This document shows, one piece after another, positions 22,801-58,300 of a stretch of 64,000 nucleotides of DNA (positions are counted from its first letter, which is position 1; each line of letters opens with the position of its first letter). A program made the position numbers and the translations under genes. Source of the stretch: an uncultured virus (IMG/VR IMGVR_UViG_3300010885_015975) (taxonomy: Duplodnaviria; Heunggongvirae; Uroviricota; Caudoviricetes); the IMG/VR virus record IMGVR_UViG_3300010885_015975; one strand, written 5' to 3'. The notes beneath the pieces are model-generated. The model saw only the letters and a list, made by a program, of their open reading frames with translations, did not search any database and had not been told where the DNA came from.

Positions 22801-23003
22801 CATTACAAAATGTAGAAGCATTAAGTTTAGTAGGTGGTAAACCATTTAATATTGAAAATAATTTTTTAGTTGATCCTAAAACTTTTAAAACAGTTAAACA
22901 ATGGGAAGACGGAGGTTCTATTGATTATACACTTGGAGATGAGATAGATGAAGCTACTATGAAGAAGTTAGAAAAATTAGGTTATACGTTTGAAAAAATA
23001 TAG
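19863..23003 (+). CDS. Modular cargo protein: SET domain, Zn ribbon, zincin (HEKYH) and unknown modules
   Basis: GKGLFA / YYNHS / GEEI..NY (SET); CKKC...CHKC; HEKYH...EEGEAR; modules separated by xxxGG motifs. Confidence 0.75.
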   Translation: MYNKKVLIDSLKNLGSAKAPAKKQDVLVDPSGNPLMSKGGLNEKPYKKVSIQKSNIQGKGLFADEPIRAGEIIGLSHIKSSFQKDGETYLKSKETPVIGKYYNHSDDAYNAGSIIQGNKRYLRALKNIQPGEEIAGNYYEDNDPTLETPDDFKKGGSLPKMPRKKNSRGYSRSLEATNKFFTENSFFAKPTSRKNKVYDPNAKYYEEGGALLTKEVTCKKCSWEWDAADGGKDITTCHKCGGQGLVHAQDGGESECPEGYVIYNGQCVEWQEPEVIETDENTGYNAATGEISQDTRPGSIENNGWWTEHEKYHHLQNLGGGASTAGFLGQRPNNTVASDQAIGNYYDRRNTELEAQTDAMIKANPNLQFIPRNKLQEFTEGFPGANALMYQDPTTEEGEARVREEQFEKDGKSMFPKKQDGGDYIEADLTPEEIQEYAKGGFIIEDISVPELTKAREGLPVLLKSLISVGKTARRPASRTLITPLTQRGVTTYLPPNENSVVDLRNIPIDLDVKQLKFPLTIAGDSGYFSVYPNNKVEDNIFHFATKMTNPMEAGRAMKLINDSFPQAFPSILEPHSLSLDSYNLLLNMAKRKDWDMNFENHIPLNFVSEKSKLFDGIEGVPTGFRTGRVFNPKMSAEMIDRINADLLGRGLMEKAYFENVTGGDWGEIRIPNYKLTRKYNLGGIAKVASKLTPGNALRAFLYKGVNPANYRIIEKFTGMPSELYKNTFSNDNRAFRTGMSLKYGAPEYLSKLLNNLDVSKSQWDKFSEADKIMAIKDYDPEIMMQLEDIGKRRLDAWAVGLKLPQEYNTLEQIGDNTYKMLGLQHTPQFFAERKNDIIANSFKGQAWDGKRDMLVGLTKDFYDLNPHPLQKINSGDNRWADLRRSQIDEFLGQPVYHHPWIQTYKVAKSPDPEFTDAIYDNDSYGVRGGYRWDVRDTPEGMQWKAYDKWDLNPFEKRGSAFIKPSSLAKKYLSSTYFKPLQNVEALSLVGGKPFNIENNFLVDPKTFKTVKQWEDGGSIDYTLGDEIDEATMKKLEKLGYTFEKI

Positions 23004-41000: not shown

Positions 41001-44000
41001 TAAACACATTAGCTGATCAAGGAATATTTGTTGATTTAGAGGAGTTTTCTAAATGGTCAAAAGATCCAAGATATTTACCTGAGTTCTTCATTGATGTTAC
41101 AAATAACAGAATGATTAATAAAGGTTCTATTGTTTATGAAGATTACATTGAATTATTTATAAAAGCTGCTGAACTTTCTGAGAAAAAACCAGCTGGTGAT
41201 CCACTTACACAAAAGCAAGTACTTGATAAAAGAATTCAAACACTTGAGGATGAAAGAGGTGATTTATTAAATGCTGAAAGATCTAAATATGATAATAGGT
41301 TCAAAGAAAAATACGGTCTGACTGAAGAAGAATACTTACAACAAGAATCAGAACGTCTTGCTGGTGAAGAACTTACAGATGAAGAAAGAAAAGCACTTGA
41401 GCAGGAAAAAGAATTAGTTACAAAAGCTATTGATAAATTAGCTTCTGATAATTATGTAGATGTTCAAGCTGCTTCTGAAGTTCTTGCTACAGAAGTTTTA
41501 GAAAAACAAGGTCTTAATGCTCAAGAATTTTTTAGTGAGCAGGAAGAGATACAAAAGAATGATAAACAAAAAAATAAAAACATTTTTGATTTATCTCAAA
41601 AGTATGACACTTCTGATATAGATGATCAACAAGAAGCATTTAATACAAGAATTGATGCTGCTCTTAAATCTGTTATCTATGGTGAATATGCTGCTACAAG
41701 ACTTGCTCAAATTGATGCTGAGTTAACTAAAAAACCTGCAGCTCCAACAATTGATGTACCAAAAACAAGAGAATTTTTAGCTTATCAAGAAGCAATAGAT
41801 GCTATTAATGATAAGTATGACAATCTTATTGCTGAAGTAAAAAATGATTTCAGAAAGAAAGGTGTAGATGAAAATACTCCTGATACCTACTCAACTAAAA
41901 CTGAGTTTGAGGATTTTGATTTAGAATTTCAAGATGAGATAACAAAAGCATTTGATGATTATTTAGTTAATGTTTTAGTGGAAACATTAGACATTAAAGT
42001 GAATAATCCAATTGAATATGATAGACTTAGAAGTAACTGGTTAGAAACACAAGGTTCTTTAATTGAATCATTTAATGAGCAGTCTAAACAAAATGCTTTA
42101 GATAAAGCTCAAAGATTGGCTCAACCTCCTGTTCTTAAATTTATTCCTACAAAAATTAATGGTCAAACAACTACATATACTATATCTAGTATAGTAAAAA
42201 GATTTCAAAAGTTTTTAGAAGATGGCCAGTATCCTAATACTAAAAAGAAAGGTGAGTTTATACAGCTGACTCCAGAAGACATTTCAAACATAAAAGATGA
42301 TATAGAAGGTTTAACTGGATATCTTAATGCAAGAGTAACTGCATCTGAGCCCAGAAATATTGCAGAACAAACTACTAATATCATACAGGAATATATTATT
42401 AACAAACAAGACGAACTTGTTGATGTAACTGATGAAGATGGTAATGTCATAGGTAGAACTTTTAGAGATAGAGGTCCTAATGATCCTATGCCAGCACGAT
42501 CTACTCAAGTTGCTGAAGAAGTTGAGACTAACATGTTAGGTAAAGATCCGTTTATATACAATCCATTAAAACCTGGAGTTGATGCTGACGGTAATGCTAC
42601 TGCTGCTCCACTTGAGAATTTATTTAATCAATTCTTTAATGATCCAGAAATTTTACTTGAAGATAGAGTAAGATTATTTATGGAAGCTTTTAAAAGAAAA
42701 GTTTATCAATCACAAGGTGGGTGGAAAGTATTTAGATCAGAAAAGAAATTAAAAACTATTGAAGATGCATTAGGTAATAGACCTACATATGAAAATTTAA
42801 AAAATATAGTTTCAAGAACAGCATTTAGAGAGTTTGCAGATGCAGGAGATGTGGTGGATAACCTAATCAGAGTATTCCTCACCCCTAATGCAGGAACTAA
42901 ATCTAATTTCTCAGAGTTTGATTATGATTCTGAAGTAGAGATAAAAGGTAGACCTGTTAAGATATCAGATGTAATGGCCAGAAAAGTTTTTGACAAACTA
43001 TTTGCACCGGTTACACCAAGTAATCCAGGAGGTATTGTTACTAAGTTTAGACTAGGAATAGTTGATGGTACATATACTATCTTATCAGAGAACGTAAAAC
43101 TATTTGATAAAAATCTACGAGACGGTAATGGTGTAACAGGAGAGCTTGACTTACTTTTAGTAAGAGAAGATGGTTCAGTTGCTATTGTGGATATTAAAAC
43201 TGCAGGTAAAGATAAATGGAAAGAATTTGGAAAAGGTACACTTAAAGATAAGTCTACATATTTCCGTGCTCAACAGTCTATATATGGGTACATGTTCCAC
43301 AATAATACAGCTATTACACCTGACTTGAAGTTAATGCCATTTGAAATTGATGTAACTATTGATGGTTATATTAATGATATTGAACTTGCTTCTATTGTAG
43401 AGGATGGAAAAGATACAATTGATTTAGAATACTTACCAGAAATTGAAAACTACGGTATTACTAAAACAACGCCTGAAATTAAAGCACCTATTAAAAGAGA
43501 GACTGCTAAAGAAGCTACTACAAATCCAGGTATTGAAGAATCTGATCCAACTAAAAATAAAATTATTGATAATGTAAATAAACCAATTATTTTAAATGGT
43601 AGAGTTGGTAAATTAGTAACAATGCCTGATGGATCTTTTGGTATTGAAGTAACTGTAAATAATGATATTTCAACACTACAACTTACATTAGATACTTTAC
43701 AAGCTAACTTAACAGTAGAAAAAAAATACGGTACTGAAGAAACACTTCAAGCATTAGAGAAAGATATCAAAAAGATATCTGATGCAATTAATTCAGCAGA
43801 AGGACTTACTGAAGTATATCCATTACAAAAAGATAGTTTAAAGGTATATGATGGAGAAATAACTTTGAATGAAGCTGGTGTAAGTTTAGTAATACAAACT
43901 GAAAATGTTGGCCAAGTTTCAACTGTAAATGGTCGAGTTATTAATGCAGCATTCTCTAATAATGATGATACTATTGCAACCATTAATGGTGTAAGGTATG

Positions 44001-45409
44001 ATGTATTAAGAGACAAAACTGGAACTATAACAGTATTAAGTTACATGTCTAATGACGAAACAATAAGTAAAATTGATAAACAGATTGGTGGGCTTTCTCA
44101 AAAAATTGGAAACCTACGTAACTTTGTCTCTACAGAAGATATAGACTCTGATAAAAGAGATGCTTTAATTACTAGGATTGCTAAACTACAAGATCAAATT
44201 AAACAACTAAATAATAAAAGAGTATCTCTTGCTGAATCAAACAAAAAGATGTTTGTATATGGAGAGAATGCTGATGATTACATTTTTGCTTTAAATAGAT
44301 TACCAAATAGTTTCCAGAGACTGACTAGAGATACTACAAAAGCAAATGAAACACAAGACTTAAAAGCAATAGATAACTTATCTTTATCACGTACTATTGG
44401 TACAGCAATAACAGAAATATTAAGTGCTGAATATCCAGATGTATTAGATACTTTGATAGAGAGTGGAGTTCAAGGCTTAAAGAAATCAGATCTAAACACT
44501 ATTACAAACTGGGCTAAAGACACTATTCAAAAATTAGAGTCATTAGGTTACACTGTAATTAATCGTGGAGATATAGTAGATGATATTACTAATCAAATTA
44601 ATGCATTGAATGATTTACTTAATGACATGCAATTAATTAATTTAACTAAGAATGGAAGAATTAGCAAAAAACAAGAAGCAGCCGACCAAGTCTTTGGGCC
44701 AGGATCAGCAGAAGTACAGAAAGGGTCTAGTGTACCTGAGAATGAAAGGTCTAGCAGAAAACCAGCAGAAGGAGTTTCTAGACCAGCTACAACAACGGAA
44801 CTTAAAGACCTTGTCAAACAAGCAAGAGAAGAAAGTTTAGGTGAAACTTTTGAAGAACCTGTAGAAGCTCAAGAAGAATTGGATTCTGTTGAAGATATAA
44901 ATAATGCTACACTAGATACTATTGAAAAAGTCTATGAGCAAGCATTTTTAGATGCAGTTAAAAACAATGAAGATACTACTCCAATAAGGGAAGCTTATCT
45001 TAATAGATTACAAGAATTAAAAACAATTGTTTCTATTCAAAATATTGCTGTTGATGAGTATCTTATAAGTAAAAATCCTATCTTTACTGACTTCTCTGGT
45101 GAGGAAGTTATAGTGGTAAAAAAGAATAAAGATTCCGTTAAATTGAAAAATATTAAGACTGAAGAATCAAGAGATTTTACTGAAGCAGAACTTATAGAAA
45201 ATTTTGAAAAAATAACTATGGAAGCAACACAACCTGAAGCAAATGTAGAAATAACTCCTGTAGATATTGAAGATTCTAATGAATCAAAAGATACTATCAA
45301 AGATATTCAAAATGATGCACCAGCACTTGCTGAAGCAAAAGAAAAATCAAAAGCATCTGATAAAAAATCAAGATTAAATAAATTAGCTGATAATTCAAAA
45401 ACTTGTTAA
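38018..45409 (+). CDS. Giant virion ejection protein with Gly-rich membrane segment and PD-(D/E)XK nuclease-like domain
   Basis: 2463 aa; GILMEGAVEGALIGGLFSGG; GELDLLLVREDGSVAIVDIKT...Y.AQQSIYGYM. Confidence 0.75.
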   Translation: MAEETLSTVENLNNQPSAFNELMAKSDFLNPATVDQPLAPKINWKDNFVNPTNYIKDNTAGVSSDYYPSSVKAARVNGVSQGGFGAMLDKGMADINSKSDVGNYAEPYAFDASPKGTFRARYKAYGQDTYNKIGFHPLIDNEALFNQNTTFGDDLTRWATHSAWPMLTKGFLDPIDSYKSIINGNGLFDASAESARDYEYFNAIGASSKGGAGGFTVNLFNSAAYSMGILMEGAVEGALIGGLFSGGNAATGAIEGGTTFLNKLGSLPKSLIEAAKGTKELLSSVKNFSNLSKAKELFGSSAKNFGNFINPLGNTLQAYKQLKNTDNITNLARSATTAGALWHDMMNLNMALSEGKLEGGFTRAQTYDRLYNKFVQDHNGKGPSLEEQESMMRQSSEGAFLNTATNTALIFLSNKHVFPSITNASFLKGAPKFSFGKVVTNVGKDFQILFQPGKTALEGTFVKQRINLVNAIKSLAKPGTYGKVGLNYFKANVVEGGQELAQDVLQEATQNYYVDTYNNPDARTYRYSTALLGDSVKKQFSSQGLETFLSGFLMGSILQAPGHIKKYATVGYNDYLKKDSSYKEYLDGREELADTVVDQLNTMYKNPQYFFDDRINNYVNQSLLGKVIDDPENQTTKEIRDTEFAAFQSAVLGSLQNGTFNSFLNHYENYKQASATDLEEAWGLAPGQGTKALERFDQSLDNAKKIATRWDTAKSKMKFMANLDDYEKDTEEYRMAQIYNKAYNQALYNYVFLHESFDNNVKREKKLYETLSSLSSIRESNFSDFTSLTDPNKLQREVEMLKTEVENLESFNTSESISEASRKRELLELYSNFQERQESLVDLFVNKTLLDNIKNEILRENPGMSDQDASLASIDQIVQQYDNGESNEFLDYKESFSNLLTGLAGGFDKRMQLEQELQELGGIDELFDSLLDTHVLRNESARLAEHVNLLSNPREFYEHIMRNFKFMKDLYNNREEIVKDIVNQEISAIEKNTLLNTLADQGIFVDLEEFSKWSKDPRYLPEFFIDVTNNRMINKGSIVYEDYIELFIKAAELSEKKPAGDPLTQKQVLDKRIQTLEDERGDLLNAERSKYDNRFKEKYGLTEEEYLQQESERLAGEELTDEERKALEQEKELVTKAIDKLASDNYVDVQAASEVLATEVLEKQGLNAQEFFSEQEEIQKNDKQKNKNIFDLSQKYDTSDIDDQQEAFNTRIDAALKSVIYGEYAATRLAQIDAELTKKPAAPTIDVPKTREFLAYQEAIDAINDKYDNLIAEVKNDFRKKGVDENTPDTYSTKTEFEDFDLEFQDEITKAFDDYLVNVLVETLDIKVNNPIEYDRLRSNWLETQGSLIESFNEQSKQNALDKAQRLAQPPVLKFIPTKINGQTTTYTISSIVKRFQKFLEDGQYPNTKKKGEFIQLTPEDISNIKDDIEGLTGYLNARVTASEPRNIAEQTTNIIQEYIINKQDELVDVTDEDGNVIGRTFRDRGPNDPMPARSTQVAEEVETNMLGKDPFIYNPLKPGVDADGNATAAPLENLFNQFFNDPEILLEDRVRLFMEAFKRKVYQSQGGWKVFRSEKKLKTIEDALGNRPTYENLKNIVSRTAFREFADAGDVVDNLIRVFLTPNAGTKSNFSEFDYDSEVEIKGRPVKISDVMARKVFDKLFAPVTPSNPGGIVTKFRLGIVDGTYTILSENVKLFDKNLRDGNGVTGELDLLLVREDGSVAIVDIKTAGKDKWKEFGKGTLKDKSTYFRAQQSIYGYMFHNNTAITPDLKLMPFEIDVTIDGYINDIELASIVEDGKDTIDLEYLPEIENYGITKTTPEIKAPIKRETAKEATTNPGIEESDPTKNKIIDNVNKPIILNGRVGKLVTMPDGSFGIEVTVNNDISTLQLTLDTLQANLTVEKKYGTEETLQALEKDIKKISDAINSAEGLTEVYPLQKDSLKVYDGEITLNEAGVSLVIQTENVGQVSTVNGRVINAAFSNNDDTIATINGVRYDVLRDKTGTITVLSYMSNDETISKIDKQIGGLSQKIGNLRNFVSTEDIDSDKRDALITRIAKLQDQIKQLNNKRVSLAESNKKMFVYGENADDYIFALNRLPNSFQRLTRDTTKANETQDLKAIDNLSLSRTIGTAITEILSAEYPDVLDTLIESGVQGLKKSDLNTITNWAKDTIQKLESLGYTVINRGDIVDDITNQINALNDLLNDMQLINLTKNGRISKKQEAADQVFGPGSAEVQKGSSVPENERSSRKPAEGVSRPATTTELKDLVKQAREESLGETFEEPVEAQEELDSVEDINNATLDTIEKVYEQAFLDAVKNNEDTTPIREAYLNRLQELKTIVSIQNIAVDEYLISKNPIFTDFSGEEVIVVKKNKDSVKLKNIKTEESRDFTEAELIENFEKITMEATQPEANVEITPVDIEDSNESKDTIKDIQNDAPALAEAKEKSKASDKKSRLNKLADNSKTC

Positions 45410-45410
45410 A

Positions 45411-48400
45411 ATGGCATGTAGTTTAAATAGAGAACAGGTATTAGATTTATATGAAGTACTTTATGGTGAAGTATCTGATAGATTAGGTGATTCTGAATTA
45501 CCTGCAATTGACTTGAATAAAATTGTTCAAGATACATACAATGTTGTAAAAGAAGCTACAGGAGATCAAGTTAAAGCTATGTTATATGCACAAGCTATTC
45601 CTGATGTATTTCATTTAGTTACTCAAGACAATGAAGCTAATGATTATCTAGTAGATAATGGTTTTGATTTTACTGCTCTTGCAAAAATGAGAAAAAAATA
45701 TGCTGATCTTACTGAGGTAGGGAAAGATATTGCAACTAAAAAAAAAGGTAAACAACAGATTGATTCTGAAATTAAAAATACAAACAAAACTAAAAAAGAC
45801 TTTGTTCCTGAAGTAGACGAGAAAGAGTTCTGGTCATTCAATGAAGATAATGGTGCTAAGGTATCAACTCCTTGGGCTACATCTATTCAAATTGCATTTG
45901 CTGGAAATCCTGAAACTTTATCTGAGGAAGAAAGGAACAACATAGATCCTGAAAAGAAATTATTTTCTGATGTAGTTAAAGCTATAGTAGAAATAGCTAA
46001 ACAAAGAACGGGCACAGAAGAGATTGAATATAATGGAGTAATACTTGCTTTGACTACTCAGTTAACAAGAAACATTTCTCCTGAACTATTGACTGCTGAT
46101 GATAGGGCATTCCTAGAGAAGAATCCTAATGATACTGGTATAGCTGCTGTTATTACAGATTCAAAAGGAAGTCTTGTATATTTTAAACCGGATGGTACAA
46201 TTACAGACAATCCTGCAGAGGGTAAGATTGTTTATCAGTACCTTAGAAAAATAAATCTTGTTGACGGTAAATTATTATTGTCTAATAGAAGTAATCGTCA
46301 TTATAATCTTGTACAACCAGAAGTTATTGCTAGAAGACAAGCAGACATAATTGAACAAGAAAGTAATGGTAAAGTAAAAGTAACAGAAGCTGAATTTCAA
46401 AAATTAGTTAAGTCTATTAAAGATCGTCAAGATAGAGAAATGAATGAGCTCTATCAGTTAAGAAAATTAATTGAAGAGTCTAATGGAGATTTACAAATCA
46501 TTCTTCCAATATTAGGAGGAACATTTGGTATACCGAGAACTGCAGTTAAGACTATGACTTTAGAAGAAGCAGGTCTTACTGAAGAGGATATTAAAAACTA
46601 TACTGGTATTACAACTGGTAAAGATAGTGGTAAACAATATGTTATCATTCAAAAAACTAAAGCTGGAGGATTAAATGTTGATCAAGAAGTATTTTTACAA
46701 AGATCAGATATTGATCAATCTTTGGCTGAACAACTTGCAACAGTATTAACTACTACAGCAAAGTTAAAAGGAAGAGAGTTAACACCTGATGAAAGAAAAG
46801 CATACTTTGAAATCTTCATAAACAATGCTTTAATGAAGGATCCTAAAACAGGATACAAAACAAATCTTCCATATAACAGAGATAGAATTAGAGCAAAAGT
46901 TCTTATTGTAAATAATGAAAAAACATTTTTTGTAGAACTTAATGGTAAAGAAATACCTCAAGATGTTCTTTTTACAGAAACTGGTAAAAAACTTATTGTA
47001 GAACACTTATTAAGTGCTAGACCAAAAGACAAAGTTAAAGATGAATTCTGGCCAGCTAATGTGCAATACAATAATAAGTATAAAGGTAAAACTTTTACAG
47101 AGTACACTATTGAAGGTGATAAGATAACTGAATCTTCTAAGGATTATTTTGATGCTATTAAACCATATGTCAAAGTTACTTATACAACAGAGACTAATGC
47201 TTATGAGAATGGTATGAATGCTTATCTTACTTATGCAATACCTGAAGGTACTGTTGAGTTTGATGGAATTATTCCTGTTGGTAGACCAAAACCTACTCAG
47301 TCTCAACCTACTACTAAAGCTAAAGTTGATAAAGAAGCACCAAAAGCTTTTCCAAAAAAACAACCTAGAACAAAACAAGTAACTGCAACAAAAACTTCTC
47401 CTAAAACAGAAACTGAAGCTAAAGCAATAAACATTCAAAATAATCCAGCAACTAGAGTAAGCTTACTAGATGATATCATTAATGGTTCATCTAACAGTGC
47501 TTTATATAAAAAGAAAGGATTAGATAGATCTAAACTTAGAGATAAGTTTTTAGATAAAGTATTTACATCTAAAGCTGATAGACAAAAAGCTGAAACATGG
47601 TGGAAGAACTCTCCTTTAAGTAAGTTCATTAGTCTTGAAAGAATGACTGAAGTAGTAAACTCAGATGCATTTGCTACATGGTCTGGTTATGGTATTACTC
47701 TATACGAAGCTGATGGTGGTACTATGGTTGATGTTTATCATGAAGCATGGCATGGTTTCTCTCAATTATTTTTAACATTAGATCAAAAGATTGAGTTGTA
47801 TGAAAAGGTTTCAAAACTTCCTAAATATAAAGGAAAAACTTTTTCTAAGCAGGAAGATTATGAGGAAATAGAAGAAGACATAGCAGAAGAGTTTAGATCA
47901 TATGCTAAGTCAAAGGGTAAAAAAGAAGTAAAAGGTTTTTTTGCTAAAATCTTTGACACAATATATAAATTTTTACAAAAAATATTTGGAAAAACTACTA
48001 AAAAAGAAGTTGCTACAAACTTACAAGATATTGAATCAGTAAAAGAATTGTTTGATAATTTATACAGAGCCTCAGAAAATCCAGAGATTCTATCAAATTT
48101 AAAACCTTCTATGGATAATGTTATGTTTGGGAAACTAAACAGAAGCAAGATTATCAATGATAATTTTACATTAGAAGAGTCTAAGAAAATTTCTGATGCA
48201 ATGGATAGCATGATGTCTGTTATATTCCAAGCTCATAATAGAGACTTTAATACAACAGCTGCAGCATTAAAACTTCTTAAAGATCCTGAGAATAAGACAG
48301 ATCTTTATAAAGATATATATGATAGATTTGAAAGATTAAGAATTGCTTATGTTTCTGATTTAGAGGCAGATGATGAGTTACTTACTGATCCTAAGTTTTT

Positions 48401-51400
48401 TGAAGAGTTGGTATTGTTAGATAAAATTACAGCTAATTTTGGTAATCTAACAGACAGTTTGGAAGGTAAAGAAAAAAACAATGTTATAGCATATCATCTT
48501 GAGAAGTCTAGATTCCGTGTATTAAGAGATGAATATATTGAGATTGAAGATCCAAGTAATCTTGAAAGGAGTAATCTTTTTAAGTTAAATGATGGTGGTA
48601 ACAGTATTTCATCTAAAGAACTAGCTAGTGAAGACACTATGATGTTATTAGCTAGTATCTTTAAAGTATCCAAAGAAAATGGTGAGGTTGTAATCAGTAG
48701 AGATGGTCTTTTTGGCCTCCCTGTATTACAAGATATTAACATTACTTGGAATAAACTTGCTAAAATTTTAGAAGGTTCATTTGATGAAATGGATATGTAT
48801 TCAAGAATCTTTGAAAATTCTGAAAATTATCCAGAGCTTGAACAATTACAAAAGTTATTACCAAATCCTTTTTTCAATGATAAAACTGCTCTAGGTCAGT
48901 ATACTCCAATGGAATTTTCTTCTGAGACTAATTTCTGGCAAGACTTTAAGAAACCAAGAATCCCTTATATACAGCTTAACTTAAACAAAGAAGAAGCTAG
49001 AGCTGAGGAAGGTGTAAGTAAATCTTTTGAAGCCCGTGTTGCAAAAGCTAACTTTGATGTATACCAGGTAATTCAGGATTGGAAGACTAATTTTATGAAT
49101 GCTGATAGTACAATTAACCCATATGTATCAAAAGATAAATATGGTAATAACATATTGAACACAGCTAAAATTGTAAAAGACTTTGGTACTGATGGTAGAT
49201 TTAACTATCGTAAAGCTAATGAGTTCTTACAAGCTATTGGTATTGTATTGGATCAGTCTAGTTCTGCAATCAAAGAAATGATTAACAACAGAACTACACC
49301 ATTCAGTACAACATTTGGTGTTGATAGAATGTATGAGGTGATTAAAAAAGTAAACAAAAGTTCATCAGCAGATGCATTCTTGTTTAAGAAAGATCCACTT
49401 ACATACTTAATTAATGGTCTTCCTGAATCACTTAGAGACAATCAATCTCAAAGTGACGAAGTAAGAGGTAGAATCAGAGCTTTAGCAGGAATTCAAAATG
49501 CATTTTCTGATAGTTATTCAAACTTTAGTGTACAAACTCCTGAAGGAAACAGAGTGTGGGAGCACATGGTTGATAACACTATTACAAGAATAGTTACAGC
49601 TATTAATTATGCTGACAACTGGCAACAACTTACAACAGCTGAGGCTGATCCAAATGGAAGATTTAAACACATGAGATGGTTAAATGAATCTAACAATACA
49701 TTTAGTCCATTTTCAAAACTGTTAACTTCTATATTTGATTTAGACCCTATGTCTCCAACATATGGACAAAAGATTTCTGATTCAAAAATTACATTACAGA
49801 ATGTAGCTGGTACTCAGATGGTAAGTCGTAGAAATGAAGGAGGTACTTCTACAGCATCAATGGATGCTACTAGTAAATACTTACAAGAGTTTCATACGAT
49901 GTTATTAAGTGGTGTTGAAGAATTCATGAGACATGCTTCTAAAAACACTGCAATGGGTATGTCTATTGATGGTGATATCAAAACTTATAATGGTAAAAAA
50001 GCTTCTAAACTTTATGTAGACATGGAGTCTTTCTTACCTTATGCTGATGGTACAATCAAGTCATATGATATCATTGAAGGTTACCTAACTGGTGAAGCTA
50101 ATAGAATTTTTAGATTCCAACAGGATCTTGACAAATTTGAAAATTATGCTGGATACAATAGAAAAGTAAAAAGAAAAGATGGTAAGAAAACTTCAGTTAT
50201 GGCTGGACAAGCATTTACTGCATTTGATGACATCCTTTCACAAACTACACAAAAAGAATTGTATTCTATAATTGATGCAGCTTCAGATAATAAATTATCT
50301 GATTTTAATTTAATGACTGAGTTGGATAACAACCCAACCTTAAGAGATTTAATTAGAAAAGATGTTGAAAAATACTTTGATATTGATACAGATGCTAATT
50401 ATGCTAGACTTCAAAAAGCTAAATATGTAGATAAAGGATTAATAGAAAGAATCCGTGTTACAAATGATGAACTTACTGAAAAAGATATAGAAACTGCATT
50501 AGTAAAAGCTTATACCTATAACTCTTTCATTCACAAGATGGAGACTGTTATCATTGCATATGGAGATTTAGTACAATACAATCATGCTAAAGAAGAGTTC
50601 CATAAACGTAATGCAGGTCTTGCATCCGGTGGTAAAGGGTTTAGAGCAGATAAAAGAGCACAGATTTATGTTAGTTCTTTGAAGAACTATTATGCTGATA
50701 GAAGAGGTTATGCCGTAAGAAATTATGATGGTACTTTACAAACAGCAATCATAAGAGAAATGCAATTCAATTCTGTCATGTACAATGAGTACAGAGATTC
50801 AATTGAAGAAACCATTTATGCAAGAACTAAGAATAGAAAGTTAGCAAAAGAAAATGCTGACAAAGCAGCAGCTGAGTATTTTTCTACTGATAAACCACAG
50901 ATGAAAATTGCTGATGGTCAAGGTATTGTATCATTTGAGACTTATAGAAGATTAAAAAATCTAGAAGGTAACTGGGGTGATCCACAAGAGTTGTTATATA
51001 GAAAAGTTTCTATGGGTGAAAATATTACTGCAGAAGATGTAGTAGAATTTTTCCCTCCATATAAGTTACAGTATTTTGGAAATATAGAATCAACAGGTCT
51101 TCCTGTAAACTCTTTCCATAAGTTCTCACTTGCTCCTATTATTCCTGGAGTAGCAAAAGAGGGTACTCCGATGTATGACTTACATGAAAAAATGATGAAA
51201 GATCAGATAGACTATGTTCTATTTGAATCTGGTTCTAAAGTAGGTCATATTGGAAAAGGTGATGTTGTATTAAATCCTGATGGTACATTTGATAAAAACT
51301 CAAAATTTACAGTAAATACTATTTATGCTGAGTTTTTGAAAAATCAAACCGAGGTAAATGCAACTTTTAAAGGTAAGTCAATCTTCTCAACACAGTTAAG

Positions 51401-54400
51401 AAAATTAATTCTTGAAGGGCTTTACCAACAAGGTAAAATCAAGTCTACAAAATATCAAGATATTACAGAAGAAAGAGTAAAGAAATACATTAACCACGTA
51501 GAAGAATATACTAATCTATTAAAGATAGAGCTTCTTGAAGAGATGGGTTATGAAGAAACTACACCTGGAGAATACAAAGCTAAAGACAAATCAAGTATTG
51601 CAAAACTAGTAAACATGATCAGAACTAATCTTGAAAGAGAAGAAGTTTTGAGTGATGATCTTATTGAGTTTATAGATGTATTTGACAACAATGGGGATTT
51701 AATTCATGATCTTTCTTTCCATCCTGAAGCTGCTAAGATAGAGAAGTTATTACTTTCTATGATTAACAAAAGAGTAATCAAGCAGAAAGTTACAGGAGAA
51801 CCCCTGGTACAAGTATCTGTTGGTTTGTATGCAAATCAATTTACAGAGCCTGATTTAAGAAAAGCAAGTAAAGATGAGATCAAAAAATGGGCCTCTACAA
51901 CGTACTTATTACCTACATATCATAAAAAAGCAAATGGTTATACTGCTGCTGCAAAAGTTATGATAGCAATGCAGGGATCATATTATAATTTATTTAACTT
52001 AGAATATGCTAATGACGAGACTGTAGGAGTTTATCTAGAAGATGGTACACTTGACATGGACAAATCATTGGCAAGACTAAATGAAAAAATTAAAGATGAC
52101 TCTTGGTTAGATGCTAATGAAGGAGCTGTTAGAAAAGCAATTACTCTTGTAGGTGTACGTATTCCTGTACAAGGTCTTAACTCTATGGAGTTTGCTGAGG
52201 TGTTTGAATTCTTACCTCCACAAGCTGGTAATATTATTATTCCACCAGCAGAAATTGTTGCTAAGTCAGGGGGTGACTTTGATATTGATAAACTTACAAT
52301 TTTCATGAACACACTTGATGAGGATGGTAATGTAATTAAACGTAATTATAAAGACAATCAAGCAATAAAAAATCTTAGAGGTACTGACAATTTTGCTAAA
52401 GCTGTTAAAGAACAAAAAGCTGCATTAGAAAATGAACTCATAGAAGATATCAGAAACATTCTTGAGCTTCCTGATAACTATTCATCTCTAATTATGCCGA
52501 ATGGTACATTTATTCTCAAGGGTATTGCTGAAAAATTATCAGATAAAGTTTCAGAGTACAATCCTAAGACTAATAAAATGACAGAAAATACTGGAGAAAT
52601 TAGTCCTACAAGAGTATTAGAAGCAATGTATAACATATACAAACATGAATCTAATATTGTAGGTAAGAAAACTCTAGGTCTTGGTGCTATTGAAAACACT
52701 TTCAATGTTATTATGAATTCACTTGGTGCTTATATGCCAGATGAATACACTTTAAAGAAAGAGTTGAGAAAAAGTAACATGAGATTAAGAAACAATAAAA
52801 TGACAGTAGACGGCAAAGAAGTCATCTCTATGTCAGATTTATATGATGTTGATGGTATTAATAAGATAGGAGATGTTATTTCTCAAATGATGAATGGATG
52901 GGTGGATGTTGAAAAAGATGCTTGGATTTTCTTTATTCAAGGAAATTATGAGGTGGCTCCAACATTGCTTTACTTAGTTAAAGCTGGTGTACCTGTTCAA
53001 GAAGCAATCTATTTTGTATCTAATCCATTGGTAAGAGAGTATGTAGATGAACAACGTCTTGCTAAGTCTACCTTTGCTGATGTACTTAATAAGAAACCAG
53101 ATAGTCCAGGTTTAGTAAAATACAAAGCTGCATCTGAAGTTATTAGAAATCATTTTGATAAAGCTGAGTTAGCTAAAAACTCTAGTAATGATGCTAGATA
53201 CTTGAAAGGACAAGAGTTATTGGATGATCACTTTAAAAACAGAAAAGAAAAAACATTTACTGAAAGGGAAATGGAAGATCTTATTAACAGCAATGATAAA
53301 GATAGTGCAATTGCAAAAGCTATGTTCTTACATTATCTTGAGTTGGAGCAACAAATTTCTGGATACACAGCACTTAAAATGAGTTCTAATCCAGATACAG
53401 CTACTAAGTCTACTCTTTCTGATGTAGAGCAAAGTGAGGCTAATATTGAAGAGTTAGAGTTTGATTCAAGAATTCCAAGAGAAATTTTGAATAGTATGAT
53501 GAATGACTCTATCATTAGTTCTTTCTTTAACGGACCTATGGCCTTAGCTGTAAGTAGACCATTATTTAAATTAAGATACCACAAGCAGATTAGTGACTAT
53601 TTAATTGCAAGAAAGAATCAGATTAAAAATGAACTTGAAACAACTTTCCCTGGTAAGAACATTGAAATGTTTAGCAATGTCTTCAGAAATGATATTGTAA
53701 GTTTCATTTTACAGAATGCCCTTAGAAAATACAAAGCTGAAGAAGGATTTATGTCTTTAAACATGGAGACTAAAATCCCTACTGCACTTGTAAAAGAACT
53801 TAAGAGAGGTGCATTTGTTAAAAGTGGTACTTTATATGTAGATGTTAAACAGTTGCAAAAAGAATTTAAAGCAAAAGCTTGGATTGAAGGATCAGATTCA
53901 GAAAATAGTTATGAAGATAGAGGCTTATACCCACTACATCCATCAACATTTATGAATAATGAAGAAACAAACTTTAGTGAATATCAAAAATTTGTTTCAG
54001 AACGAGAATACTTAAGATCAATATACCCTCTTACAACGGACTACTCTACATCAGTAGAATTCCAAGAGGAACTAAAAACTACAAAAGAACTCTTACCTGA
54101 TTTATCTAATGAAAAAGCTGTAAGATATACATATGAAAAACTATTGGCCATAAAAGCTTTAGATAACTCATATAACTTCTTCAACTTATTCCAAGATAGT
54201 GACAATGCTTTTGCTGTAAGAATGTCTAAGTTGTTACAAAATAATCCTGAGCTTGCAAAAGACTACCCAGTATTGAGTAAATTAAAACTTGATTCAGATA
54301 AAACTGAGACTGCATTCAATATCTTATTAGCTGATAAGGATTTTGACAATGATAAGTCAAATCTTTATAGTAATGATCTTAAAAGATTGGCTGATCCAAC

Positions 54401-55379
54401 TGTACAAAAAGTTAGTGATCCACAAGAAAATGCTAGAATTAGTGACATGTTTAAGTACTTAAGCACATTTGCTTTCTTACAAACAGGTCTTAACAAAACT
54501 AAATTAAGCTTTACAAACATTGTTGACTACACAGACTTCTTAACTATTGTAGAAGATGAGGTTGGTAAATTCACAGATGCATTAGATAAAAAAGGATTTA
54601 CTGTATTAGACAATTTCTATGACCAGTTTATTAGACAAAACTCAGTTACTAATCTAAATAAAAATAGATTCAAAGACTATTTATCAGGTATGGATTATGC
54701 TAATCCTGAAAGAATTAGTCCTACAGTTACACCTACACCGCAAAGAGGTGAGCAAACTGCTGAAGAAGACTCTACTAATATGGATACTACAGCTGAAGTA
54801 AAAAGACTTGGTTTGAGATCTACAGATAAAGAAGGAGTATTTATGTATAATGATAGCAATGCTAAAAACATATACTATTACACTAACATAGGTAAGAATA
54901 ACCCGGATGTAGTGTTCATACACAACACAAGTGTGTATGAAATTAAACCTGAGCAAATTGCAAAAGGTACTAATCTAGGTGGTGCATCTAACTTTATGTC
55001 AGAAATACCTAGCATGTCTATTAATTTTCCAACTAATTTATTTGCAAGTGTTGTTAATGGTAAACAAGTTGAGCTTAGTCCTGACCAATACCAAACACTA
55101 AAAAATATTTGGGAAAAAAGAATTAATATAATCAAACAAATTCAAGATAAAGATGGTAAAATTGCATTTCCAGAGTATGGATTTGGTGATCCTAACATCA
55201 TGCCTCAAGAATTATTTGTATATTTAAGTAAGAGGTTATTTGAAGAGTTTCAATATGTTAATCCAGGTTCTACTAAGTATGACCAAATGAGAGACTTAGT
55301 GAGTGCAAGTCAAGGAATTTCAGATGCTGAAATATTAATACAATTGGAATTAGAAGAAGATCCGTTTAAATGTTCATAA
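45411..55379 (+). CDS. Virion-packaged two-barrel DNA-dependent RNA polymerase (crAss-like, phi14:2 gp66 type) with N-terminal zincin domain
   Basis: 3322 aa; catalytic GGDFDIDK (DFDID 52275-52289) preceded by RIPVQG; ADGQG, PYK.QY and HKFS motifs; HEAWH at 47739-47753. Confidence 0.9.
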   Translation: MACSLNREQVLDLYEVLYGEVSDRLGDSELPAIDLNKIVQDTYNVVKEATGDQVKAMLYAQAIPDVFHLVTQDNEANDYLVDNGFDFTALAKMRKKYADLTEVGKDIATKKKGKQQIDSEIKNTNKTKKDFVPEVDEKEFWSFNEDNGAKVSTPWATSIQIAFAGNPETLSEEERNNIDPEKKLFSDVVKAIVEIAKQRTGTEEIEYNGVILALTTQLTRNISPELLTADDRAFLEKNPNDTGIAAVITDSKGSLVYFKPDGTITDNPAEGKIVYQYLRKINLVDGKLLLSNRSNRHYNLVQPEVIARRQADIIEQESNGKVKVTEAEFQKLVKSIKDRQDREMNELYQLRKLIEESNGDLQIILPILGGTFGIPRTAVKTMTLEEAGLTEEDIKNYTGITTGKDSGKQYVIIQKTKAGGLNVDQEVFLQRSDIDQSLAEQLATVLTTTAKLKGRELTPDERKAYFEIFINNALMKDPKTGYKTNLPYNRDRIRAKVLIVNNEKTFFVELNGKEIPQDVLFTETGKKLIVEHLLSARPKDKVKDEFWPANVQYNNKYKGKTFTEYTIEGDKITESSKDYFDAIKPYVKVTYTTETNAYENGMNAYLTYAIPEGTVEFDGIIPVGRPKPTQSQPTTKAKVDKEAPKAFPKKQPRTKQVTATKTSPKTETEAKAINIQNNPATRVSLLDDIINGSSNSALYKKKGLDRSKLRDKFLDKVFTSKADRQKAETWWKNSPLSKFISLERMTEVVNSDAFATWSGYGITLYEADGGTMVDVYHEAWHGFSQLFLTLDQKIELYEKVSKLPKYKGKTFSKQEDYEEIEEDIAEEFRSYAKSKGKKEVKGFFAKIFDTIYKFLQKIFGKTTKKEVATNLQDIESVKELFDNLYRASENPEILSNLKPSMDNVMFGKLNRSKIINDNFTLEESKKISDAMDSMMSVIFQAHNRDFNTTAAALKLLKDPENKTDLYKDIYDRFERLRIAYVSDLEADDELLTDPKFFEELVLLDKITANFGNLTDSLEGKEKNNVIAYHLEKSRFRVLRDEYIEIEDPSNLERSNLFKLNDGGNSISSKELASEDTMMLLASIFKVSKENGEVVISRDGLFGLPVLQDINITWNKLAKILEGSFDEMDMYSRIFENSENYPELEQLQKLLPNPFFNDKTALGQYTPMEFSSETNFWQDFKKPRIPYIQLNLNKEEARAEEGVSKSFEARVAKANFDVYQVIQDWKTNFMNADSTINPYVSKDKYGNNILNTAKIVKDFGTDGRFNYRKANEFLQAIGIVLDQSSSAIKEMINNRTTPFSTTFGVDRMYEVIKKVNKSSSADAFLFKKDPLTYLINGLPESLRDNQSQSDEVRGRIRALAGIQNAFSDSYSNFSVQTPEGNRVWEHMVDNTITRIVTAINYADNWQQLTTAEADPNGRFKHMRWLNESNNTFSPFSKLLTSIFDLDPMSPTYGQKISDSKITLQNVAGTQMVSRRNEGGTSTASMDATSKYLQEFHTMLLSGVEEFMRHASKNTAMGMSIDGDIKTYNGKKASKLYVDMESFLPYADGTIKSYDIIEGYLTGEANRIFRFQQDLDKFENYAGYNRKVKRKDGKKTSVMAGQAFTAFDDILSQTTQKELYSIIDAASDNKLSDFNLMTELDNNPTLRDLIRKDVEKYFDIDTDANYARLQKAKYVDKGLIERIRVTNDELTEKDIETALVKAYTYNSFIHKMETVIIAYGDLVQYNHAKEEFHKRNAGLASGGKGFRADKRAQIYVSSLKNYYADRRGYAVRNYDGTLQTAIIREMQFNSVMYNEYRDSIEETIYARTKNRKLAKENADKAAAEYFSTDKPQMKIADGQGIVSFETYRRLKNLEGNWGDPQELLYRKVSMGENITAEDVVEFFPPYKLQYFGNIESTGLPVNSFHKFSLAPIIPGVAKEGTPMYDLHEKMMKDQIDYVLFESGSKVGHIGKGDVVLNPDGTFDKNSKFTVNTIYAEFLKNQTEVNATFKGKSIFSTQLRKLILEGLYQQGKIKSTKYQDITEERVKKYINHVEEYTNLLKIELLEEMGYEETTPGEYKAKDKSSIAKLVNMIRTNLEREEVLSDDLIEFIDVFDNNGDLIHDLSFHPEAAKIEKLLLSMINKRVIKQKVTGEPLVQVSVGLYANQFTEPDLRKASKDEIKKWASTTYLLPTYHKKANGYTAAAKVMIAMQGSYYNLFNLEYANDETVGVYLEDGTLDMDKSLARLNEKIKDDSWLDANEGAVRKAITLVGVRIPVQGLNSMEFAEVFEFLPPQAGNIIIPPAEIVAKSGGDFDIDKLTIFMNTLDEDGNVIKRNYKDNQAIKNLRGTDNFAKAVKEQKAALENELIEDIRNILELPDNYSSLIMPNGTFILKGIAEKLSDKVSEYNPKTNKMTENTGEISPTRVLEAMYNIYKHESNIVGKKTLGLGAIENTFNVIMNSLGAYMPDEYTLKKELRKSNMRLRNNKMTVDGKEVISMSDLYDVDGINKIGDVISQMMNGWVDVEKDAWIFFIQGNYEVAPTLLYLVKAGVPVQEAIYFVSNPLVREYVDEQRLAKSTFADVLNKKPDSPGLVKYKAASEVIRNHFDKAELAKNSSNDARYLKGQELLDDHFKNRKEKTFTEREMEDLINSNDKDSAIAKAMFLHYLELEQQISGYTALKMSSNPDTATKSTLSDVEQSEANIEELEFDSRIPREILNSMMNDSIISSFFNGPMALAVSRPLFKLRYHKQISDYLIARKNQIKNELETTFPGKNIEMFSNVFRNDIVSFILQNALRKYKAEEGFMSLNMETKIPTALVKELKRGAFVKSGTLYVDVKQLQKEFKAKAWIEGSDSENSYEDRGLYPLHPSTFMNNEETNFSEYQKFVSEREYLRSIYPLTTDYSTSVEFQEELKTTKELLPDLSNEKAVRYTYEKLLAIKALDNSYNFFNLFQDSDNAFAVRMSKLLQNNPELAKDYPVLSKLKLDSDKTETAFNILLADKDFDNDKSNLYSNDLKRLADPTVQKVSDPQENARISDMFKYLSTFAFLQTGLNKTKLSFTNIVDYTDFLTIVEDEVGKFTDALDKKGFTVLDNFYDQFIRQNSVTNLNKNRFKDYLSGMDYANPERISPTVTPTPQRGEQTAEEDSTNMDTTAEVKRLGLRSTDKEGVFMYNDSNAKNIYYYTNIGKNNPDVVFIHNTSVYEIKPEQIAKGTNLGGASNFMSEIPSMSINFPTNLFASVVNGKQVELSPDQYQTLKNIWEKRINIIKQIQDKDGKIAFPEYGFGDPNIMPQELFVYLSKRLFEEFQYVNPGSTKYDQMRDLVSASQGISDAEILIQLELEEDPFKCS

Positions 55380-55380
55380 T

Positions 55381-58300
55381 ATGGTATGCCAGGTACAATT
55401 AAATTCAATTAAGTTTTTACAAGATAAAGGAGCTACAAATGATGTTAGAAGAATCATCAATGAAGATCTTTTTGATAAGTTAAATGATCAGATAACAGCA
55501 TTAGCTGAAACAAAGTATGGTTTAAAAACTGATGGTACTAAGTTATTTAGTATGAACATGTCTGAGCATGTGGATCCACAAAGATCTACCTACTACAGAG
55601 ATGCTAAGGTTAGAATACTTAGAGCTGAACCTAACGTAAAACTTTTTGAGAGATTACAGGACTTGTATAATGCAAGACCAGATGATGCAATGATGATTAA
55701 AGATATGCCAAATGCTTTAGATAATCCTAAAGTAGATCAATCTTTACAAAAGATCAATGGTGTATTATTTATGGATGTTAAACTTGATGAATTACAAAGT
55801 CAAAGATCACAAGAAATTGCTGAAGTACTTGCACAAAGACTATCTAAAGGTATTGGTGCACAATTTGAAAACATTACACAAGAAGAGGCTGCTAACATTT
55901 TAAAAAACAGAGCCGTTAAATACAATGGAGAAGCAGCATTCTATTATGCTGGCACTGTATATATAGTAGGTGACAATGTAAATGTAAGAACGGTGCTTCA
56001 CGAATTCTCTCACCCGATATTACAGGGACTGAGAAAAACAAACAACATCCTATTTCAGAAACTATATGATCAAGCATTAGCTACAGAAGAAGGTCAAGGT
56101 ATTAAGTACTATGTACTAAATAACTATCCTGAACTAGAAGAGAACTCTGATTTATTTAAGGAAGAAGTTCTTGCATATGCTATGCAGTTAAGAGCATTGA
56201 ATAGAATCAATAATGAACTAGAGACAGAAGGTTACCAAAGTTTCATGAACAAGTTATTGGCTGCTATTAAACAGTTGTTGAGAGGCTTGTTTGGAGCAAA
56301 GGTAAACGTGGCAAAACTAGATGTGGATACTACATTAGAGGAGTTATCAGATATGCTCTTAGATAAAGACTTTGAGTTTAAAACTGATAATATTACTGAA
56401 GAGGATCTGGTTATGTTCTCACGGAATGTTGTTGACCGAGCAAAAGAACTAAATAAGTTTTCTAATGCAGAGTCACAACTCAAAGTAGTCAGGGAAATAT
56501 ATGAAACCAATAGAAGAATTCTTACAGAAGCTGAGAACTTTAAAGGAGACAAAGCTTCAAAAAAATTCTTAAAGGAGTCATTATTTGAAAAGGGAACAAA
56601 TAGATACTTACGTGAAGTTGTTAGTACACTAAAAGACAATCTTAATGTAGACACTGAAAGTTTTACAGAAGATGAAATGATTCAAAATGCATTAGATGCT
56701 GCTAAAGGGGCCCTAGATGTAGACCTTCAAAGAGCAGTAGCATTGGTAAATACATTAGATAATATCAACAGCATGACCCAAAACATGTTACTTGATGTTT
56801 CAAGAATCAGCAATACCAATATAAACAATAGAAGTACTATTGCTTTGTTGATGTTATACAAACAAAATTCAAAAGCATGGTTGAAAATGATTCAAGCAAT
56901 TGATGATTCTCTTTCACCAAATGGTCAGTTGATTGAAAGTAATAATCCTTTCTATCAAACCTTGAATGAGATAGTATTAAACATTACAAGAATCAATACC
57001 AATATTGCAAATATCCTTAAGAACAATAACATACAGTTCTATGTAGAAATTACTGGATACATGTCTAAGTATATTCAAGATAGACTTAAAGGTAACCTTG
57101 GTATTGCATTAAAACAAACTTTCTCTGCAGATCAGTTAGAGAAAGAAGTTGATGACTTATATAACAAAGTTGTTCAACAAACTCTTACTGATGCTGATGT
57201 GGATGCATTAGTACAGAAAGGTATTCCTGCGGATGTTTTAAAAGGATTTCTCAAGGAATACAAGGATTTAGTTGTTGATGAAGATAAGATTAGAGCAGCT
57301 CTTACAGGAGGAGCTCAAGATGTTAGTTGGTTTAATAGATGGTTAGAAAGCTATAGTTCAAGTAATGATGTTATAGTAGGACCATTAGCAATGTTTATTC
57401 AGAATGAAAGAACCCAGGTACAAAATGTTGTTTGGGAACAATCCATGAAATTCAGAAAGAAACTAGAAGAGCTTTTACCTAAAGTAGGATTTAGTAAACT
57501 AAACTCTATTCAGTTAAGAGACAAGCTTGCATTCAAAGATAAGATACTTTATTTTGATAAAGAAACCGGTAAACCTATTGAAAAAGAAGTTTACGCTTAT
57601 CTAGATAAATACAAAGACTATAGATACCACTATGATTTATTAGAGTGGAACATAGAAGAAGCAAAGAAAACTGAAGATCAAACAAAACTTGCTGATGCAC
57701 TTATGGAGTTTGAGCAGTTTAAAAGAGATTTCATGTGGCAAGAGTATGTGCCAGAGTTCTATGAGAAAGATGATATCTTTAAAAAGTCTGAGGTAGGTAA
57801 ATTAGCATACTTTGTTAGAAAGCAAAAGCTGCAAGCTTACAACAACTTACTAAACAGTATGGAGAATGAGTATGAGAGATTTGAAAAATACTCTACTATT
57901 CAAGCTGCATTTAGAGAATTCCAACAATTATATTCTCTTACTTATGAAGATGGTACTTCTAAAGTAGATGATCCAGAGAATGGAATCTATGACTTAAGTA
58001 TTGCTGAAGTTTTACAAGAACATAGAGCTGCTACAAAAGGTTTCTATGAGTGGAGACCTATTGAAGGATTACTACAAAGTGCATACAATGAGTTTGCAGA
58101 TTTATTAGAAACTAAAGAAATCTATCCTGGTTCAGCAGACTTTAAAGCTGAGTTAGAGAAATGGAGAAGACAAAATCTTAGGATGGAGTATGATCCTAGT
58201 TACTGGGAAAGTAGAAATGCATTAGTAACAGAACTTAGAGAACTACAAACTAGAATGAATGAAGCTACTAAATCTAAATTTGATGTAGCTGAAGCATTCC

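Follow-up and report, generated by a model that had tools for sequence, protein, structure and literature searches.

Paired cysteines at the gene breaks of a giant cargo-protein trio in crAss-like phages

Introduction

Why should three adjacent giant phage proteins, otherwise devoid of cysteine, carry this residue exactly where one protein ends and the next begins? The question is raised by a 64,000-nucleotide stretch of DNA from an uncultured virus (IMG/VR record IMGVR_UViG_3300010885_015975), hereafter the window, in which proteins A, B, and C, the second of them a predicted virion RNA polymerase, are encoded one directly after another. An earlier inspection of the DNA without database searches (the sequence-only reading) had proposed that disulfides or shared metal sites join the C-terminus of each protein to the N-terminus of the next, so that the three form one thread for packaging and ordered ejection. 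We compared this locus with its relatives in IMG/VR and with named members of Crassvirales. The comparative evidence strongly supports the view that the C-terminal cysteine of one protein works with the N-terminal cysteine of the next, in the order A-B-C.

Cysteine pattern in the window

Proteins A, B, and C, as translated from their open reading frames (ORFs), comprise 7,764 amino acids (aa) with four cysteines, all at the junction-facing ends (Table 1). The cysteine counts and coordinates given by the sequence-only reading for the three proteins, and its statement that the 1060-aa protein encoded upstream of A has none, proved right in every instance on translation; its label of B as an RNA polymerase is likewise borne out, by the DFDID motif and by a profile match to PDB 6VR4 (see below). 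Together, the 1060-aa protein, A, B, and C contain no internal cysteine in 8,824 aa, compared with 1.8% in the other ORFs of the window: the 16 further plus-strand ORFs of at least 150 aa have 197 cysteines in 10,998 aa, a rate that predicts about 140 in A, B, and C. Within the three genes, TGT or TGC triplets occur 568 times out of frame and four times in frame, which argues that the scarcity of cysteine results from selection on the protein and not on the DNA. If four cysteines were placed at random in 7,764 positions, the chance of finding every one of them no more than three residues away from the four junction-facing ends would be ~6e-12. That the pattern is not due to chance follows from its extension far beyond the window.

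Conservation of the junction cysteines among relatives

IMG/VR was scanned for related loci, which yielded 36 loci and then 80 more (the best 80 of 506 relatives), with identities to the window from 98% down to 30%. The analysed set consists of the window and 113 loci with a B ORF bearing the motif DFDxDK; L025, L093, and L094, which have no such ORF, were dropped. Cysteine is present on both sides of all 128 distinct junctions among these relatives, 0-9 residues from the C-terminus of the upstream protein and at position 3-6 of the downstream one. The junctions comprise 59 of the A-B and 69 of the B-C type; the scripted division into 60 and 68 mislabels L071. The outer ends of the trio are free of cysteine (0 of 19 distinct N-termini of A and 0 of 51 distinct C-termini of C), the one apparent exception, at an N-terminus, being L049, where the frameshift-split B was mistaken for A. 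In the count over orthologous trios that the sequence-only reading had proposed, exactly four cysteines were found in 15 of the 17 complete distinct trios, five in one, and six in one.

The same holds for homologues of B in the protein collection. Among the best 120 of 1,115, both terminal cysteines are present in 110, and the remaining ten are fragments of 2,082-2,796 aa; internal cysteines number 25 in 404,939 aa across the 120. The terminal cysteines persist even though the identity of the protein core drops to 22-25%.

A frameshift with overlapping frames interrupts B in L016 (16480-16720), which shares its contig with L049, and the break is cysteine-free. It is probably an assembly error or a pseudogene.

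Separate, inverted, and fused genes in named Crassvirales

The rule that cysteines stand at the breaks of the trio was then applied to 26 named crassvirus records, a sample that lies outside the epsilon and zeta groups and in which the fused forms were identified. It fits all 26 genomes, that of crAss002 only after correction of a start codon. A, B, and C are separate in nine of them (Kolpuevirus 'frurule', DAC15, crAss001, cr116_1, cr85_1, cr126_1, phi14:2, Dulem virus 41, and cr128_1), and the four terminal cysteines are present in 9/9. In phi14:2, isolated from seawater, the cysteine of gp67 is its last residue, gp66 has cysteines at 3 and 2179 only, and gp65 at 3 only, in a total of 5,398 aa. 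In crAss001, gp47 has Cys2339 of 2341 residues, gp50 has Cys5 and Cys2404 of 2412 residues plus one internal cysteine, and gp49 has Cys5 only. Gene A is inverted in seven of the nine genomes, lying on the strand opposite to B and convergent with C, and its C-terminal cysteine is retained. Since the pair survives the inversion, explanations that need both codons on one mRNA are ruled out.

Seventeen genomes carry fusions. In the eleven A+B fusions (ten Suoliviridae and Pipoluvirus cr108_1), no cysteine is found near the N-terminus and one lies 1-10 residues from the C-terminus; C was found in ten of these genomes, with a cysteine at position 3-6 in each. In the six B+C fusions (five Intestiviridae and one Crevaviridae), A ends in cysteine, the fusion begins with M-x-C or M-x-x-C, and at least its last 75 residues are cysteine-free. 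No close cysteine pair is present in the fusion zones, which were mapped by blastp to the split forms, and the 480 residues after the zincin-like motif YHEA[FW]H are free of cysteine in five of the eleven A+B fusions. The purge of internal cysteine is strictest in the seawater phage phi14:2 and looser in gut phages.

Two further observations concern the annotation of these genes. In crAss002 gp33 (L137, 15118-15216), a start at Met33 gives MSCTPS.., resembling the MSC.. of other Intestiviridae, and the annotated start is, judging from this sequence, probably 32 codons too early. Several Suoliviridae cargo genes (in L122, L124, L125, L130, L131, and L143) contain tens of in-frame stops under translation table 11, in line with stop-codon recoding of late genes.

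Additional splits and non-homologous break points

Two loci carry an additional, independent split, one in B and one in C, and a new cysteine pair is present at both. In L077, B is divided into proteins of 3,977 and 655 aa, the new ends being ..KPNCNI and MAC..; unsplit relatives lack cysteine at this site, and the 655-aa piece resembles the unsplit B of L076 in its ending, with an alignment over the last 120 residues. In L070, C is divided into a 396-aa piece, whose sole cysteines are Cys3 and Cys395, and a second, longer one, the new ends being ..DCG and MAC... In L069, where C is unsplit and has a cysteine at position 3 only, the regions aligning with the two pieces are residues 1-123 and 529-1931. 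Splits that do not correspond to true protein ends show no cysteine pair: the frameshift artefact in B of L016/L049 carries no cysteine at all.

A gene for a GIY-YIG homing endonuclease lies between the halves of C in L070 (15208-15801; Pfam E 2.6e-7), which suggests that insertion of the endonuclease caused the fission. Intervening sequences also interrupt the RNA polymerase gene in or next to the DFDxD region in cr116_1 (L123, 17035-17874), where the insert holds a 215-aa ORF of the LAGLIDADG type, and in cr108_1 (L120, 17269-17558). The deposited annotations of both genomes list the two exons as separate proteins. This apparent split leaves no cysteine at either new end in cr108_1; in cr116_1, the annotated first piece ends in cysteine and the second has no N-terminal cysteine. 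The terminal cysteine of the first cr116_1 piece probably lies in read-through sequence.

The A|B break itself falls at non-homologous positions in different lineages. In the window lineage, the YHEA[FW]H motif follows the break by 630-1,270 residues (776 in the window) and belongs to B, where it was found in 101 of 114 sources; in Steigviridae it precedes the break by about 148-364 residues and belongs to A. Residues ~718-905 of the window B aligned with ~2093-2301 of crAss001 gp47 (hhalign of alignment A4 against A5, probability 99.6%, E 7e-24), and the distance from YHEA[FW]H to DFDxD is nearly constant at about 1,450-1,560 aa. Neither the window lineage nor Steigviridae has a cysteine at the A|B break point of the other. 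The motif shifts relative to the break while its spacing to DFDxD stays constant, which argues for one colinear super-chain cut at different places, each cut with a cysteine pair of its own.

Nature of the link and alternative explanations

A fusion that removes one junction leaves exactly the two cysteines of the other, so the C-terminus of A is paired with the N-terminus of B, and the C-terminus of B with the N-terminus of C. This is the pairing in gene order that the sequence-only reading had put forward, and it agrees with the comparison throughout: the pairs follow the breaks, are missing at fusions and outer ends, are gained at fissions, and survive the inversion of A. The other conceivable pairing, of the C-terminus of A with the N-terminus of C and of the two ends of B with each other, was rejected on the same ground that fusions leave the two cysteines of one junction; a single four-cysteine metal site shared by both junctions was rejected because fusions leave just two.

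Other chemistries were also considered. Split inteins and trans-splicing were discarded, as Pfam (E<=0.01) assigns no intein or Hint family to A, B, or C, and there is no space for intein halves beyond cysteines so close to the ends (0-9 residues from the C-terminus, position 3-6). CaaX-type lipidation was set aside because the position of the cysteine varies (0-9 from the end) and no such domain is present. That the pair supports a ligation chemistry making a true peptide bond appears highly improbable.

Taken together, the sequence comparisons suggest that A, B, and C probably behave as one 'virtual polyprotein' of ~7,800 aa, in which the cysteines at the breaks form an inter-chain link, most likely a disulfide. 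Under this model, each evolutionary cut of the chain into genes would place one cysteine on each new end, and the two would connect neighbouring proteins C-terminus to N-terminus, replacing the peptide bond. The disulfide would form inside the virion; it would let the three proteins pack in equal numbers and be pulled through the tail one after another, A-B-C, as an unfolded thread, until the reducing cytoplasm of the host undoes it. Lineages with fused genes presumably rely on proteolysis instead. The purge of internal cysteines would keep stray disulfides from knotting proteins that have to unfold on their way through the tail, a line of reasoning that PMC11445570 applies to N4-like ejection proteins. 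The covalent nature of the link, the equal packaging of the proteins, their threading, and the reductive release are what we infer. A disulfide is favoured because subunits in the tail of crassvirus virions are already known to be joined by disulfides (PMC10172136), because an internal purge is expected if wrong disulfides block unfolding and passage, and because this purge is strictest in the seawater phage and looser in gut phages.

The last 106 aa of B were co-folded with the first 115 aa of C, in keeping with the proposal of the sequence-only reading to co-fold neighbouring ends. The result supports the pairing weakly, with an ipSAE of 0.36 against 0.00 for the best of three controls; the runs share at least 44% of contacts, and the predicted local distance difference test score (pLDDT) of the partner is at least 71. 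In the calibration, 116 of 157 solved complexes attained the mark, as did 2 of 215 mismatched pairs; with scores of 0.60 or less, just 18 of the 157 attained it, together with both mismatches.

Several observations weigh against the proposed disulfide-linked thread, beginning with this weak co-folding of the B-C ends. Cysteines occur near the fusion zone in some A+B fusions: four of the eleven have a lone cysteine at +179 to +308 after the zincin-like motif, cr56_1 has two that are 28 residues apart, and cr108_1 has one at +10. These stray residues could be relics or unrelated. The gut lineages are less strict in general, with up to 17 cysteines in one fused protein; crAss002 fits the rule only if the start of its B+C fusion is moved to Met33, and the locus of cr10_1, an A+B fusion, yielded no C gene. 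In LMMB (861 aa; L136, 4146-6731) and in crAss002 (557 aa; L137, 4423-6096), the cargo protein encoded first after the muzzle gene carries a single cysteine close to its C-terminus, at a distance of 1 or 7 residues, whereas an N-terminal cysteine is missing from the protein that follows; terminal cysteines can thus have other partners. Moreover, the cargo proteins are synthesised in the reducing environment of the cytoplasm, and the hosts are in many cases anaerobic. Thioredoxin was sought in three related records and found in none; the search for an Erv1/ALR thiol oxidase gave matches in 0/3 records but carries no weight, as its control likewise matched nowhere. Annotated thioredoxin genes are present in other crassviruses, namely cr108_1, ctcc615, and cr128_1.

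The alternative that survives best is that a metal ion (Zn, Cu, or Fe) bridges the junction cysteines, or that they act as free thiols in non-covalent docking, with the same connectivity of the thread. It agrees with every comparative result, would be compatible with assembly in the reducing cytoplasm, which prevents disulfide formation, and could draw on acidic residues beside many C-terminal cysteines (..EEDPFKC, ..LLDDLDC) as metal ligands. Two thiolates alone, however, make a poor and labile site, no conserved histidine or further cysteine stands beside the pair (alignments A2 and A3), and fusions with two cysteines exclude a four-cysteine site over both junctions. The near-total purge of internal cysteine is also easier to explain as avoidance of wrong disulfides, and we consider a metal or thiol bridge unlikely.

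A terminal cysteine could instead link to another copy of the same protein (A-A, B-B), to the portal, to the inner capsid, or to a small thiol. The lone C-terminal cysteines of the LMMB and crAss002 cargo proteins, for which the next gene offers no obvious partner, fit such an arrangement, as do the copy numbers above one per virion proposed for crAss001 in the available portion of PMC10172136. It leaves unexplained, however, why a C-terminal and an N-terminal cysteine are paired at breaks, why the outer ends are cysteine-free (0/19, 0/51), and why the two residues are lost jointly on fusion and gained jointly on fission. We rate it slightly less probable again than the metal or thiol bridge.

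A role of the cysteine codons in translation, by ribosome hopping over the stop in the manner of T4 gene 60 or by pausing for coupled re-initiation, seems remote. It is suggested by the same amino-acid codon flanking each stop-start junction, by a gap of 5-54 nt between the two cysteine codons, and by the TGT directly before TAA at junction 1 of the window. For the A-B pair it is refuted by seven named genomes in which A is on the opposite strand to B, yet both ends carry cysteine; in Intestiviridae, A and B+C are 65-170 nt apart. Every downstream cysteine has an ATG 2-5 codons ahead of it, the stop lies up to 9 codons past the upstream cysteine (range 0-9), 25 of the 102 distinct junction strings contain another TGY triplet within the gap, and the frame offsets between the two cysteine codons are spread 28/38/36.

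Least probable of all is that terminal cysteines are leftovers of conserved end motifs without a joint function, since, although these motifs are conserved within clades and part of the conservation is therefore shared ancestry, the arrangement has P ~6e-12 in the window alone, the break positions are non-homologous, the cysteines were gained independently at two fissions and are jointly absent at 17 fusions, and they are kept while core identity falls to 22-25%.

Proteins B and C and the gene context

The assignment of B as a crAss-like virion RNA polymerase (phi14:2 gp66 family) is supported by sequence similarity. The GGDFDIDKL of B (residue 2289) was aligned by blastp with GFDFDIDKLY of the 'putative RNA polymerase' of Kolpuevirus and DAC15, and tblastn matched the second half of B to 95 crassvirus records at 22-25% identity, several of them annotated 'putative RNA polymerase'. 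A phmmer search of PDB with B alone gave no match at E<=1; the profile of the B core alignment A1 matches PDB 6vr4_A, the phi14:2 polymerase, over the catalytic region, at GSDFDIDK, with E 3.1e-18. The phi14:2 enzyme is packaged in the virion and active on early promoters, according to the accessible part of preprint 10.1101/2020.03.07.982082. Full-length B homologues of the window clade (P0079-P0183) range from 3,243 to 4,046 aa. B homologues carry differing Pfam insertions (PF13532, PF06414 with PF13671, PF08719, PF12694, and PF25176), which look like swappable enzyme modules delivered with the polymerase.

AlphaFold2 modelling of the last 200 residues of B gave a mean pLDDT of 81.4, with residues 179-195 and 198-200 below 50, and for the first 100 residues of C it gave 79-97 per block of ten, with a helix at 4-15. 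In these models, the C-terminal cysteine of B would sit on a flexible tail behind a well-folded domain and the N-terminal cysteine of C just ahead of the first helix. A Foldseek search of PDB with the B C-terminal domain returned no match at E<=0.001; dual-specificity phosphatases, the top rows, were taken as meaningless (TM 0.25-0.33, root-mean-square deviation 7-12 Å). Protein C has a conserved N-terminal domain (alignment A3) and an LHEFSH motif at 206-211.

The window is a divergent crAss-like phage (Crassvirales), an assignment based on the ring proteins R2 and R1 and the muzzle protein that Pfam identifies upstream of the trio (Table 1). A blastn search of window positions 44000-47000 against the phage collection gave no match, and PHROGs and Pfam scans gave no family for A or B. 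By blastp, residues 1594-1782 of A align with 1699-1871 of crAss001 gp47 (E 5.5e-6). The N-terminus of A, MAEE(T/N).. (window 38018-38041), is kept across the clade and may mark the front of the thread or act as its packaging signal.

Table 1. Coordinates of the cargo trio, its junctions, and related features in the window
Feature	Coordinates	Strand	Details
Upstream cargo candidate, 1060 aa	34830..38012	+	Translated ORF; no Cys
Protein A, 2463 aa	38018..45409	+	Translated ORF; sole Cys is residue 2463 (last), TGT 45404-45406, stop 45407-45409
Protein B, 3322 aa	45411..55379	+	Translated ORF; Cys3 (TGT 45417-45419) and Cys3321 (TGT 55371-55373)
Protein C, 1979 aa	55381..61320	+	Translated ORF; sole Cys is residue 3 (TGC 55387-55389)
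Junction 1, A-B	45404..45419	+	TGT (Cys2463 of A) TAA A ATG GCA TGT (Met-Ala-Cys3 of B)
Junction 2, B-C	55371..55389	+	TGT (Cys3321 of B) TCA TAA T ATG GTA TGC (Met-Val-Cys3 of C)
Zincin-like motif YHEAWH, B residues 776-781	47736..47753	+	Marker for the A|B break position
RNA polymerase catalytic motif DFDID, B residues 2289-2293	52275..52289	+	blastp alignment and A1 profile
Conserved B C-terminal domain with acidic tail ..LEEDPFKCS bearing Cys3321	54777..55376	+	Alignment A2
LysM domain, C residues 1655-1693	60343-60459	+	Pfam LysM, E 6.6e-6; also phrog_1274
CrAss_Ring_2 (tail ring protein)	12618-13280		Pfam E 5.7e-21
CrAss_Ring_1 (tail ring protein)	13280-14317		Pfam E 3.2e-9
crAss_MUZ (muzzle protein)	14320-19863		Pfam E 3.8e-22

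The 1060-aa protein encoded upstream of the trio, which has no Pfam or PHROG match, is a candidate for a further ejected cargo protein. The proteins at its position in named crassviruses are cysteine-free too, for example crAss001 gp46, as are both proteins preceding the A+B fusion in Suoliviridae. Directly after the muzzle gene, the window encodes a 1046-aa protein (19863-23003) with a SET (lysine methyltransferase) domain at 58-138 (Pfam E 1.9e-6). In contrast to the cargo block, other structural proteins of the window (5407-8364, 27101-31381, and 31390-34773) are cysteine-rich or have regular CxC...CxC clusters; examples are 64 cysteines in 985 aa, cysteines at 634/636/653/655, and cysteines at 790/792/809/811/818/820.

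Novelty and implications

Cysteine suppression in ejected phage proteins is already known (PMC11445570), as are the trio and its fusions. No description of junction-facing cysteine pairs or of linked crassvirus cargo was found in literature searched as full text, a search that took in neither subscription papers nor, for PMC10172136, the supplements and extended-data tables. The broader proposition, to which we give about even weight, is that crassviruses treat a cargo of ~5,400-9,000 aa as one translocation substrate in which reducible Cys-Cys 'stitches' replace peptide bonds. If it is true, the position of a gene break would be nearly neutral, and homing endonucleases, inversions, and fissions could cut the chain anywhere, given a cysteine on both new ends. 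The stitches would also act as a redox trigger, the polymerase being tethered and silent in the virion and freed once the thread reaches the reducing cytoplasm. This would be a natural case in which proteins encoded by separate genes are connected terminus to terminus in order to be translocated.

Crassviruses are among the most abundant viruses of the human gut, and how they pack and inject megadaltons of protein, including an RNA polymerase, is the issue here. A rule that places a cysteine pair at every break amounts to a testable model of equal loading, ordered threading through the tail, and polymerase release. The cultured phages phi14:2 and crAss001 carry the same four cysteines, and data on reduced and non-reduced virions exist for crAss001 (PMC10172136). 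The rule is also of use in annotation, where it separates true protein ends from frameshift or intron artefacts (L016, cr116_1) and flags mis-called starts (crAss002).

Comparison with known systems

The trios of named crassviruses (gp67/gp66/gp65 of phi14:2 and gp47/gp50/gp49 of crAss001) are homologous to A, B, and C of the window and have the same four terminal cysteines. They are likewise placed after the ring and muzzle genes, and the zincin-like region of B matches gp47. The window proteins are larger, however, with a core identity of just 22-25%, and the zincin-like motif, which precedes the A|B break in the crAss001-type trio, follows it in the window. The available text of preprint 10.1101/2020.03.07.982082 and of PMC10172136 describes the trio proteins as virion components that are fused into one polyprotein in some phages, and that of the latter reports inter-subunit disulfides in the tail of crassvirus virions and a crAss001 structure in which the cargo is not resolved. 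In the same portions of both sources the trio is described but its terminal cysteines are not, the word 'cysteine' occurring 0 times.

N4-like phages (N4 gp50; DEV gp71-gp73) also eject a giant virion RNA polymerase with partner proteins through a short tail, and cysteine is strongly suppressed in these proteins, as here; passage through the periplasm is the reason suggested in the accessible part of PMC11445570. Their polymerase differs in being one cysteine-free chain, and neither terminal cysteines nor chain linking is reported in that part of the source (PMC11445570).

A further likeness is to the internal core proteins of T7 and P22, one of which has peptidoglycan-directed activity; the counterpart here is the LysM domain of C. 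The internal core proteins of T7 (gp14/15/16) and P22 are stored in the head and unfolded to exit through the tail ahead of the DNA. To our knowledge, covalent concatenation is not known for these ejection proteins. Ejectosome proteins of the T7/P22 type are mentioned in PMC10172136.

The crassvirus junctions differ from T4 gene 60 in keeping the cysteine pair even when the two genes are encoded on different strands, and every downstream gene starts from an ATG of its own. In T4 gene 60 bypassing, identical codons flank the stop-containing gap, and both codons are needed on one mRNA.

Two-chain toxins are unrelated to the trio, and the analogy with them is functional only: their chains arise by nicking of one polypeptide and are not joined head-to-tail at their termini. 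Diphtheria toxin and the clostridial neurotoxins consist of two chains connected by a single disulfide, which is reduced once the toxin enters the cytosol. The crassvirus cargo is proposed to follow this principle, in that a reducible disulfide would hold the chains together through a narrow channel and free the enzyme in the reducing cytoplasm.

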